Source of the DNA: Candidatus Bathyarchaeota archaeon
GTDB lineage: Archaea > Thermoproteota > Bathyarchaeia > 40CM-2-53-6
Direction of reading: 5' to 3'
Assembly: GCA_005888735.1 (NCBI GenBank)
Contig: VBBN01000035.1
Location: forward strand, 11,671 to 75,670
Length of the DNA: 64,000 bases
Positions within the stretch are counted from its first letter, which is position 1. The number at the start of each line of letters is the position of its first letter. Of the stretch, positions 33,532 through 35,784 are shown one piece after another. The notes beneath the pieces were generated by a model. It was not told where the DNA came from, did not search any database, and saw nothing but the letters and a program-made list of their open reading frames with translations. The translations under genes and the position numbers were made by a program.

Positions 33532-35784
33532 TTGAAGAGTCTAGGCTGGGTTTTCGACCTTTACCATCAAAACGGCCAGATGATAGTCTGGCTGAAGAAA
33601 GATAACGGTAGCTGCGTACGGCTCGTTGACCAGTGGAGGCCACGAGTCTACATCGCAGGCGAAACTCGAGATCTACTAGAGCTCGCTTGCAGGGACGAGT
33701 TTACCACGTCACGGCTTGTTTGGAAATATGAGCAGCCTGGCGACATTGAAAAGACTCGAGCATTGGAAGTAGAGGTCGAAGGCGATCGTGAAGCCTTAGC
33801 GCTCGCGGAGAGAATCGAGAGAAACGGCCGCTATTCCATGTTCCGTCTCTACAATGTTGATATTCCACCATCCCAAATGTACCTCTACGAGAAAAACCTC
33901 TTTCCACTCGCATACGTGGAAGTGGAACAATGCGAAGGAAAGGTTCACTGGTCACTAAAAGATTCGAGAGAAGCGGTAGACTATGAACTCCCACATTTCA
34001 AAACCATCACAGTCCAAGTAAAGACAGCGACCGATAGAAGGATCCAAGGCTTCGCAGACGAGCTTAAGTCTTTACGCATTTCCTCCGAGGATGAAGCTCT
34101 AACGATAGATTCTGGCAGCGAGGCTGAGAAGCTCGCAGAAACCTCCAAGGCATTCCAAGAATTAGACCCTGATATTGTTCGCACAGAAGGCGGAGACTCT
34201 TTCATCTTTCCCTACCTGGCCGGTAGAGCTCGAAAGAACAATGTCCTCGCCAAGCTTGTGCTGGGCCGCGAGCCCTCACCCCTCAACGTGTACAGCGTGC
34301 AGGGGCACAGCTACTTCTCGTATGGAAAGATACTGTACCGTGAGACAGCAGTCCGGCTCCCAGGAAGGCTGCACCTAGACCAGACGAACGCCTACATCAG
34401 CAACGACTGCGACCTTGAGGGACTCTTCGAAGTCTCGAGAACTTGCATAATCCCAGTCCAACGCGCGTCAAGAGCAACAATCGGGACGAGCATGACCTCG
34501 CTCCAACTCTACAACGCTGTAAAACAGGAGGTCCTCATTCCCTGGAACAAGAACAAGGCTGAAGACTGGAAGAGAGACGAGGAACTGATCGTCGCTGATA
34601 GAGGGGGCTTCATCTACGAACCCCAAACAGGCGTCCACGACAATATCGGAGAGCTGGACTTTTCCTCCCTCTACCCAATGGTTATGCTACAACAAAACTT
34701 GAGCGGAGAAACCGTTGGATGCTCCTGCTGCCGTGATTCTGCCTACAGAGTCCCGGAACTAGGCTACAACATATGCCAGCGCTGGCAGGGCATCGTCCCG
34801 CGCAGCCTCGAAATTCTCCTCGCGAAAAGAGCAGCCTACAAGAAACTCAAAGAAAACGCGGACCCACCACCCGCGGAGGTATATTCGAAACGCCAAGCCG
34901 CGCTGAAATGGATCCTAGTCTGCTCATAGCCGCCTAGTAAGCGGCGGGCAATCGGCTACCTGGGGTTCAAGAACGCTCGGTTCGGAAAAATTGACGCGCA
35001 CATTGCAACCTGCGCCTTCTCTCGGAGGGTATTGAAACAAGCGATAGAAATCGTGGAAGCGCACGGGTTCGAAATAGTTCACGCTATTGTGGACTCAATG
35101 TGGCTTCGCAAGCCCGGATCCACTCGAGAGGAGTACGAGGACGTCTGCGAGGAGCTTAGAGACCGATTGAACCTTCCCATCAGCTTCGAAGGCCGGTATA
35201 AATGGATCGTTTTCCTCAACTCAAAAGTTGACCGGCAAGCTGCAGTGCTGAACCGGTATTATGGAGTCTTCGAAGACAAGACTTTGAAAGTTAGAGGGAT
35301 AGAATTGAGAAAACACGACACGCCGAGAATAGTGCAGAGGTGTCAAGACAAGATGCTGAAAGTATTCTCTAAAGCCTCCGATTCGCAAGAGTTCCACGAA
35401 CTAGTTCCCGAGGCCTTGAAAGTGCTCATAGAGCATGTTTCAATGGTTAGACAAGACAAAATTCCGATAGAGGATTTGGTTGTTGTCAAGAGTCTGAGCA
35501 AGAACCCCGGAGAGTACACGAACCTTGTCCCCCAGGCCATCGCGGCTCGACAGATTCAGAGAGAAGGAGGCTCGGTCCATTGTGGACAGAGCATCAGTTA
35601 CGTTCTCACATTCGACAAGTCCAGCGTAGAAAACAACCGTGCCAGGCCCTCACAGCTCTTGGATGAGAGCACACCCTATGACAAGCTGTGGTACGAGGAT
35701 CTGCTAGTCTCTTCTGCAGCGAACCTCTTGATGCCCTTCGGACTTGACAAGGTGCAAATCAAACATCTACTCCATGACGGCTAG
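33532..35784 (+). CDS. family-B DNA polymerase homolog with degenerate catalytic motif C (inactivated PolB-like), interrupted by one in-frame TAG at 34927-34929
   Basis: Motif A DFSSLYPMVM. Motif B region [13 protein letters not shown] lies immediately after the TAG in the same frame. Motif C is HAIVDS instead of YxDTDS. The two ORFs (33532..34929 and 35032..35784) share one frame. Confidence 0.75.

Follow-up and report, generated by a model that had tools for sequence, protein, structure and literature searches.

Analysis of a 64,000-nt stretch of contig VBBN01000035.1 (assembly GCA_005888735.1; hereafter the window) revealed a 24-nt insert at positions 34928-34951 of the forward strand, within the polB2 gene of a soil Bathyarchaeon, which encodes a family-B DNA polymerase of the Dpo2 type. 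Our analysis suggests that this insert is very probably an archaeal bulge-helix-bulge (BHB) intron, i.e. an intron of the tRNA-splicing type, located inside a protein-coding sequence.

In the proposed pre-mRNA, the exon nucleotides GCUC (34922-34925) would pair with the intron nucleotides GGGC (34946-34949) and form a central helix. This helix would lie between two 3-nt bulges, with an intron hairpin closing one end and an exon-exon helix the other. The splicing endonuclease EndA would cut each bulge between the second and third base, and the RNA ligase RtcB would join the exons to give ...UGC UCA U/UC GGC... (the slash marks the junction). The joined message, with the junction ...GUCUGCUCAU/UCGGCUACCUG..., would encode ...VCSFGYLGF... 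and a 742-aa polymerase, and translation of the unspliced mRNA would halt at the UAG formed by the 5' junction.

An insert in the polB2 reading frame

A preliminary description of this DNA had assigned two open reading frames (ORFs) in one frame, with TAG at 34927-34929 between them, to one family-B polymerase gene; the coordinates and the complementary Pfam halves agree with that assignment. The TAG closes ORF 33532..34929 (465 aa, TTG start). Past it the same frame stays open until the stop at 35782-35784, and the second listed ORF (35032..35784) merely begins at the first TTG of that frame. The Pfam family DNA_pol_B is split over both halves, with profile positions 19-159 matched by the N-terminal half and 221-452 of 453 by the C-terminal half. 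Motif A (DFSSLYPMVM, 34657-34686) and motif C (HAIVDS, 35080-35097), both on the plus strand, are present as first described.

A search with the joined protein yielded 119 full-length orthologs, mostly without a name or labelled Bathyarchaeota/Bathyarchaeia; the N-terminal fragment itself was also among the matches (P0017, 'Crenarchaeota archaeon 13_1_40CM_3_53_5'). The insert is absent from 119/119 full-length orthologs, which read across the break as ...VCSFGYLGF... with an invariant phenylalanine. The window reads VCS, a stop, PPSKRRAI and then GYLGF, i.e. nine codons in place of one Phe and a net gain of 24 nt over the orthologs. The gene had been taken to be continuous but for one stop; this does not hold, since 24 nt are inserted relative to the orthologs, and PPSKRRAI does not represent protein sequence. 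An ortholog alignment had been proposed as a means of finding a conserved sense codon at the stop; with Phe and no insert in every ortholog, it indicates an insertion rather than a substituted codon. When 34928-34951 is deleted in silico, T and TC join to form TTC (Phe466) and the product has 742 aa. No near-identical uninterrupted protein was found among the 120 best homolog matches, the best full-length match being 64% identical. The parts of the gene are as follows.

33532..34927, plus strand: polB2 exon 1; residues 1-465 and the first base (T) of the Phe466 codon; Pfam DNA_pol_B 19-159 and a weak exo1 match
34928..34951, plus strand: putative 24-nt BHB intron, AGCCGCCTAGTAAGCGGCGGGCAA; recognised by ortholog comparison, same-site homologs and three assemblies
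34952..35784, plus strand: polB2 exon 2; opens with TC of the Phe466 codon; Pfam DNA_pol_B 221-452
34927..34929, plus strand: in-frame TAG across the predicted 5' splice site; T exonic and AG intronic; would end translation of the unspliced mRNA

The source is a metagenome-assembled genome (MAG), and a sequencing, assembly or consensus error had been listed among the candidate explanations. However, three independent strain-level assemblies from different projects carry the identical insert, namely the window, GCA_001918715.1 contig MNGL01000019.1 and ENA ERZ27285634 contig k141_5153408. The three strains are about 99.4% identical and differ at 12 gene positions (eight synonymous and four non-synonymous), with 34900-34970 identical in all. 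This agreement rules out an assembly artefact, and the insert is real. Two public contigs, each from a different project, encode the N-terminal ORF, and homologous inserts occur in more than 138 other contigs. The probability of an error is negligible.

Geometry and covariation of the insert across relatives

Relatives were identified with the degenerate pattern TGGATHYTNGTNTGYWSN{8,38}GGNTAYYTNGGNTTYAARAAYGC, which is unique in the window, absent from 100 shuffles and covers introns up to 34 nt. Matches were obtained in 20 species-representative genomes of GTDB, of which 19 carry the label Bathyarchaeia/Bathyarchaeota and one the label 'Acidiferrales bacterium', and in at least 118 metagenome contigs. 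A total of 141 insert copies, representing 106 distinct sequences of 20-33 nt, were found, all at the same site. The lengths were 20 nt (18 copies), 21 nt (14), 22 nt (11), 23 nt (3), 24 nt (31), 25 nt (13), 26 nt (5), 27 nt (4), 29 nt (1), 31 nt (4), 32 nt (35) and 33 nt (2).

Two archaeal polB2 contigs stand under bacterial labels: L020 (DATIYC010000159.1) as 'Candidatus Acidiferrales bacterium' and P0073/L146 (DATLKV010000122.1) as 'Candidatus Angelobacter sp.'. They are probably mis-binned archaeal contigs in bacterial MAGs.

The lengths bear on a programmed read-through of the TAG, which the preliminary description had put forward. Under read-through or recoding, for example by pyrrolysine, a residue at the stop followed by PPSKRRAI would be placed within motif B, and the window insert, a multiple of 3 and in frame, would allow this. 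However, the length is not a multiple of 3 in 90 of the 141 copies (64%). The insert is conserved as paired RNA rather than as codons, and its translation would disrupt an invariant motif. TAG is also the commonest stop in the window, where the 36 long ORFs end in 18 TAG, 13 TGA and 5 TAA. No pyl genes were noticed, and no systematic search for them was made. Read-through is thus extremely improbable.

All 106 distinct sequences share a 5' exon end ...GCTCAT, an intron end G[GA]G[CT]A-N and a 3' exon start T[CT]GG. The triplet at the 5' junction is TAG in 104/106 and TAA in 2/106, and the spliced junction is TTY in 106/106. In the window the elements of the BHB are placed as follows.

34922..34925, plus strand: central 4-bp helix, 5' strand GCUC (exon 1); pairs with 34946-34949
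34946..34949, plus strand: central 4-bp helix, 3' strand GGGC (intron); its U-G pair alternates with U-A across sequences
34926..34928, plus strand: bulge 1, A U / A; predicted 5' cut between 34927 and 34928
34950..34952, plus strand: bulge 2, A A / U; predicted 3' cut between 34951 and 34952
34929..34945, plus strand: intron hairpin h'; stem 34929-34933 with 34941-34945 (5 bp) and 7-nt loop 34934-34940
34916..34920 (UAGUC) with 34954-34958 (GGCUA), plus strand: exon-exon helix h; 4-5 bp after a U-pyrimidine mismatch in 106/106

The archaeal splicing endonuclease cuts between the second and third residue of each 3-nt bulge (PMC2738675). Applied to the window, this rule gives the two cuts listed above, which are the only two positions that restore the Phe codon. 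In the definition of the BHB motif, the helices h and h' each contain at least two Watson-Crick bp (PMC7714728), and h' has 5 bp in the window. The orientation of the motif was fixed from tRNA geometry, in which the central-helix strand is followed by the bulge, 5' to 3', on each strand. In tRNA the intron is placed at 37/38; nucleotide 38 is next to the 31-39 pair, and the intron base 3 nt upstream of the 3' splice site is the partner of position 32. A mirror topology, with the bulge 5' of the central helix, was ruled out on this geometry. GCCG/CGGC occurs in the window by chance, with poor flanking helices, and by eye the mirror arrangement also fails in relatives whose exon 2 starts with TTGGA.

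Analysis of the distinct inserts revealed strict conservation of this geometry. The central helix has 4/4 pairs in 106/106 sequences (GCUC against GGGC, GAGC, GAGU or GGGU). Bulge 1 is AUA in 106/106, and bulge 2 is A-N-U in 106/106 (AAU 88, AGU 16, ACU 1 and AUU 1). A hairpin with at least three consecutive bp abutting the bulge was found in 103/106. The inserts fall into two classes: class A, of 20-29 nt (GCCGCC...GGCGGC), and class B, of 31-33 nt, with a longer hairpin of unrelated sequence. In class A (alignment A1, 75 sequences) 95.1% of the cells were paired compared with 23-58% in slid controls, and in class B (alignment A2, 31 sequences) 90.6% compared with 13-48%; 0/500 shuffles reached the score in either class. 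Compensatory hairpin pairs, changed on both sides, numbered 4/5 in class A and 6/10 in class B. The central helix was 100% paired in both alignments, with its variation limited to U-G/U-A and G-C/G-U, and the exon-exon helix had 92% (class A) and 99% (class B) of its cells paired.

The constraint extends into the exons. Cys-Ser is encoded by TGC TCA, the codons forming the central helix and bulge 1, in 106/106 intron-bearing alleles, and the neighbouring codons vary freely. The six intronless or intein-bearing alleles compared have TGC or TGT, followed by TCC, TCA or TGC. Judging from codon usage, synonymous sites within the BHB are frozen, pointing to an RNA-level constraint on exon codons.

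Programmed translational bypassing, in which the ribosome would hop the 24-nt gap, is another way to obtain one product from this message. A stop after the take-off codon and a hairpin are features resembling phage T4 gene 60, and both are seen in the window, where UCA could serve for take-off and the stop comes immediately after it, at the foot of a hairpin. However, no codon in the correct frame would serve as a matching landing site, and GGN is preceded by no intact Phe codon; the product would be without the invariant Phe or have Ile or Val instead. Bypassing also has no need of two conserved 3-nt bulges and a 4-bp helix, and it is very improbable.

Several points weigh against an intron. 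EndA cleavage, RtcB ligation and the spliced mRNA itself are what we infer from the genomic sequence, and neither an EndA nor an RtcB gene was found within the 64-kb window. EndA is considered universal in archaea. The mismatch U34921/C34953 parts the exon-side helix from bulge 2, and the motif is slightly relaxed; relaxed BHB motifs of this kind are reported to need broad-specificity (alpha-beta)2 or epsilon2 enzymes (PMC5829648). The minimum free energy structure of the lone sequence (34908-34966) is a different fold, at -21.0 to -21.3 kcal/mol compared with -15.1 for the BHB (z-score -0.5), and thermodynamics alone is therefore uninformative at the polB2 site. RNAalifold, run with no structure given, speaks for the BHB in that it independently arrived at the central helix, bulge 1 and the hairpin for both classes, and for class B at the exon-exon helix as well. 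Against the BHB, it also paired U34921 with A34950, giving a 5-bp helix and a 3-nt bulge for which the canonical cut is out of frame. This pair is regarded as a competing pair of the free RNA; the enzyme measures a fixed distance over the 4-bp helix from the unambiguous 5' bulge.

The frequency of BHB-like motifs counts on the same side. A loose BHB scan of the window returned 532 and 624 matches on the two strands compared with about 440 in shuffles; as loose motifs are common by chance, the motif alone would prove nothing. Only in combination with an ORF-joining test did the loose scan make the polB2 site conspicuous, with 498 and 277 codons joined. The one other strong join, at 62105-62144 on the minus strand, was rejected because it connects two adjacent genes, a helicase-like ORF that ends there and a gene whose ATG follows. 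Under stricter settings, 871 kb of related loci yielded only the polB2 intron, its alternative registers and one gene-junction false positive. Rfam gave no meaningful match around the insert site, and ARAGORN found no tRNA gene in the 64-kb window or related loci.

Selection, inheritance and the adjoining intein site

After in-silico splicing, the open frame of nearly all loci without a contig-end cut extends over about 460-500 codons on the upstream side and about 280-290 on the downstream side. Comparison of intron-bearing genes gave dN/dS of about 0.07 for exon 1 (last 206 codons, 1190 pairs) and about 0.10 for exon 2 (first 200 codons, 1398 pairs), at a dS of about 1.1, which is near saturation. 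By these ratios, strong purifying selection acts on both exons. Exon 2 opens with 22 codons, ending [KR]IDAHIATCA[FY], that hardly vary as protein while up to six synonymous codons occur at a single site.

Eight of the 141 loci were short after splicing, with isolated extra stops or frameshifts and no second introns. Isolated in-frame stops occur in L026, L119 and L051, that of L119 inside motif A (DFS-stop-LYP), and frameshifts in L006, L055, L074 and L032. Errors of assembly or of long reads may account for them, as may true decay of the genes.

A pseudogene, in which TAG and insert together would have inactivated the gene and left its downstream part untranslated, had also been named as a candidate. 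Four observations speak in its favour: the in-frame stop sits in the most conserved motif, PolB2 is dispensable in many archaea (PMC4104785), the exon-2 differences among the three strains are two synonymous and three non-synonymous, and the 8/141 loci carry additional lesions. They are outweighed by the low dN/dS on both sides of the insert and by exon-2 codons that are invariant as protein with free synonymous change. Inserts of this type persist in genes that share about 55% identity, and their removal in silico leaves both flanking ORFs intact in nearly all of the 141 loci; the BHB is conserved with covariation. There is a very small chance that the gene is a pseudogene.

The public annotation has two proteins at the polB2 locus. 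This would fit a genuinely split polymerase, made as two polypeptides from adjacent genes and perhaps left by faulty intein loss. Split PolB genes exist in Methanobacteriales and are thought to stem from erratic intein excision (PMC4104785), and the break lies 4 nt from an intein insertion site. However, in 67 of 111 distinct sequences the stretch from the preceding stop to GYLGF contains no in-frame ATG, GTG or TTG, which excludes a separate downstream gene for most. The first start available in the window comes 27 codons (81 nt) after the GGC that opens GYLGF, beyond residues clearly under protein-level selection. A split gene would also leave the BHB, the frozen synonymous sites and the ever-rebuilt Phe codon unexplained. 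We consider it very unlikely.

The intron-bearing proteins have diverged to 54-55% aa identity. In a neighbour-joining tree of 169 sequences, a quick distance tree, intron presence required three changes compared with about 48 with shuffled labels. By this tree the intron is old and vertically inherited in one clade. The intronless P0047 is nested among intron-bearers and reads TGC TCA TTC GGG, which equals the predicted spliced junction and is consistent with precise intron loss.

Analysis of the orthologs also revealed an intein at the adjoining site. In 26/119 orthologs it is inserted between Cys and Ser (VC/CLP...VHN/SF), at a point corresponding to 34923..34924 on the plus strand, 4 nt upstream of the intron site. 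Carriers include P0007, P0009-P0011 and P0013 and loci L145 and L146. A LAGLIDADG domain is present in some of these inteins, in proteins of about 1270-1300 aa, whereas the proteins with mini-inteins have about 870-1070 aa. Intein carriers occur at scattered positions within the intronless clade. Intron and intein appear mutually exclusive, but the scan pattern cannot match intein-bearing alleles by construction. An intein is an in-frame protein element that begins with Cys or Ser and ends in HN before Ser, Cys or Thr, and those of the orthologs have this form (C...HN/S). The window insert itself was rejected as an intein; it has only 24 nt and contains stops.

It has been reported that introns and inteins alike prefer conserved sites (PMC2814812) and that neighbouring inteins interfere with each other's homing (PMC10643990). 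These reports make it plausible, though still speculative, that the intron confers heritable immunity against intein invasion. Lying 4 nt from the intein point, it would, as proposed here, destroy the DNA target of the homing endonuclease. Alternatively, it could be a stripped remnant of a formerly mobile BHB intron that was a competitor for this site, and splicing may gate a mutagenic translesion polymerase. These proposals on origin and function are doubtful. In the last of them, the junction UAG would keep the unspliced mRNA silent and splicing efficiency would act as a post-transcriptional gate. An intron beside an intein homing site makes interference between RNA-level and protein-level elements a testable idea.

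Polymerase family, gene neighbourhood and known intron systems

The sequence features indicate a PolB2/Dpo2-type polymerase. This group is defined by HxxxD in place of YxDTD (PMC8764526), and the window has HAIVD; the 'inactivated' family-B group named in the preliminary description is thus borne out as PolB2/Dpo2. The best solved relatives are Thermococcales PolB (E about 1e-44). In the alignment to Pyrococcus abyssi PolB, YIDTDG corresponds to HAIVDS, and KILANSYYG of motif B to KWILVCSFG. The 3'-5' exonuclease motifs of PolB2 enzymes are degenerate; in the present gene the exonuclease region, which may likewise be degenerate, matched exo1 weakly and in part (27 bits, profile positions 142-226 of 242). 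The best NCBIfam matches were 'type B DNA-directed DNA polymerase' models with scores below their cutoffs. A catalytically dead enzyme had been predicted from motif C. This prediction is unsafe: Sulfolobus Dpo2, with the same HxxxD, is a robust polymerase without exonuclease activity and a translesion extender (PMC8764526).

PolB2 genes accompany RadA-like genes and a small arCOG07300 gene (PMC4104785). In the relative L147, RadA, Rad51-like, DUF8156 and PolB2 genes stand in a row. The corresponding genes of the window are listed below.

36526..37563, minus strand: divergent Rad51/RadA-like gene, of a kind that usually accompanies PolB2 in its operons; Pfam Rad51 35.7 bits; 46% identical (E 2e-77) to the Rad51-like gene of the L147 operon
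37585..38556, minus strand: RadA, on the strand opposite to polB2

A tblastn search with the L147 protein found no DUF8156 homolog in the window. The roughly 400 nt upstream of polB2 (33119-33531) have no convincing ORF, and relatives have a small DUF8156 gene directly upstream. An IS605 OrfB / Cas12f-like TnpB lies just upstream of the RadA / Rad51-like / DUF8156 / PolB2 operon of P0047 (L147 1-388 and L149 1-385). Two intronless polB2 genes, P0004 and P0008, about 70% identical, occur in one MAG (GCA_030157145.1; L141, JASDBE010000132.1, and L142, JASDBE010000026.1) and are either a paralog pair or the result of a mixed bin.

Two overlapping ORFs in different frames, with an ATGA overlap, match thyX (Pfam Thy1) at 39276-40477 on the minus strand. 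ORF 39998..40477 covers profile positions 2-64 and ORF 39276..40001 positions 54-191. The upstream ORF has ThyX-like motifs of its own (GHYDILEH and WLITTNLRVL) and lacks RHR, and the downstream ORF has RHR and SQRY. The pair was judged to be two genuine genes, apparently a degenerate ThyX paralog with a true ThyX behind it, and not a split gene or an intron.

As of 2020, cbf5 was listed as the only gene with an ORF-internal BHB intron, plus one Haloferax intron in a 5' untranslated region (UTR) (PMC7714728). No report of an mRNA intron in polB or in Bathyarchaeia was found in the searchable literature. The polB2 intron would be the second known intron family inside archaeal protein-coding sequence, deeply conserved, in a different class (Bathyarchaeia) and hosted by a DNA-repair polymerase. 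With cbf5 the sole reported case for more than 20 years, this family would indicate that endonuclease-dependent mRNA splicing is no crenarchaeal oddity. Its 106 sequence variants constitute a natural substrate set for EndA recognition of mRNA. Annotation pipelines call such polB2 genes two hypothetical proteins or pseudogenes in many Bathyarchaeia MAGs, and a scan for in-frame breaks with BHB geometry could reveal more such genes.

PolB2/Dpo2 genes described elsewhere (Rogozin 2008; Makarova 2014, PMC4104785; Feng 2022, PMC8764526) share HxxxD, motif A and RadA-like neighbours with the present gene. Unlike them, the gene is interrupted by the intron in this clade and by an intein in sister clades, the RadA-like genes of the window are on the opposite strand, and no small gene of the DUF8156/arCOG07300 type was detected there. 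The motif-B inteins of family-B polymerases occupy almost the same site (VC/SF) and, as proposed for the intron, are removed after transcription or translation without harm to the host protein. However, inteins are in-frame proteins of 180-560 aa, whereas the polB2 element would be an RNA of 20-33 nt with stops that encodes no endonuclease.

The closest counterpart is the cbf5 pre-mRNA intron of Crenarchaeota (Aeropyrum, Sulfolobales and Desulfurococcales; Watanabe 2002; Yokobori 2009, PMC2738675), which is likewise short and ORF-internal, with a BHB-like motif formed by exon and intron. In both families the predicted cut falls between the second and third bulge residues, the motif is somewhat relaxed, and inheritance is vertical within the clade with occasional precise loss. 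The host of the cbf5 intron is a pseudouridine synthase of hyperthermophilic Crenarchaeota, whereas that of the polB2 intron is a translesion-type polymerase of mesophilic soil and sediment Bathyarchaeia. The polB2 intron, unlike that of cbf5, lies in a catalytic motif, motif B, 4 nt from an intein site. Experiments have demonstrated the splicing of cbf5, whereas that of polB2 is deduced from comparative data. The BHB intron of Haloferax volcanii HVO_1309 (Schwarz 2020, PMC7714728) is similarly an mRNA substrate of the splicing endonuclease rather than a tRNA or rRNA, but it is located in the 5' UTR and interrupts no ORF, whereas the polB2 intron splits a codon.

The canonical hBHBh' introns of tRNA and rRNA have the same two 3-nt bulges, 4-bp helix and intron-side and exon-side helices, and at 20-33 nt the polB2 introns resemble short tRNA introns in length. 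They differ from these in that the host is an mRNA and that the exon-side helix starts with a U-pyrimidine mismatch, which is imposed by the Cys and Phe codons.

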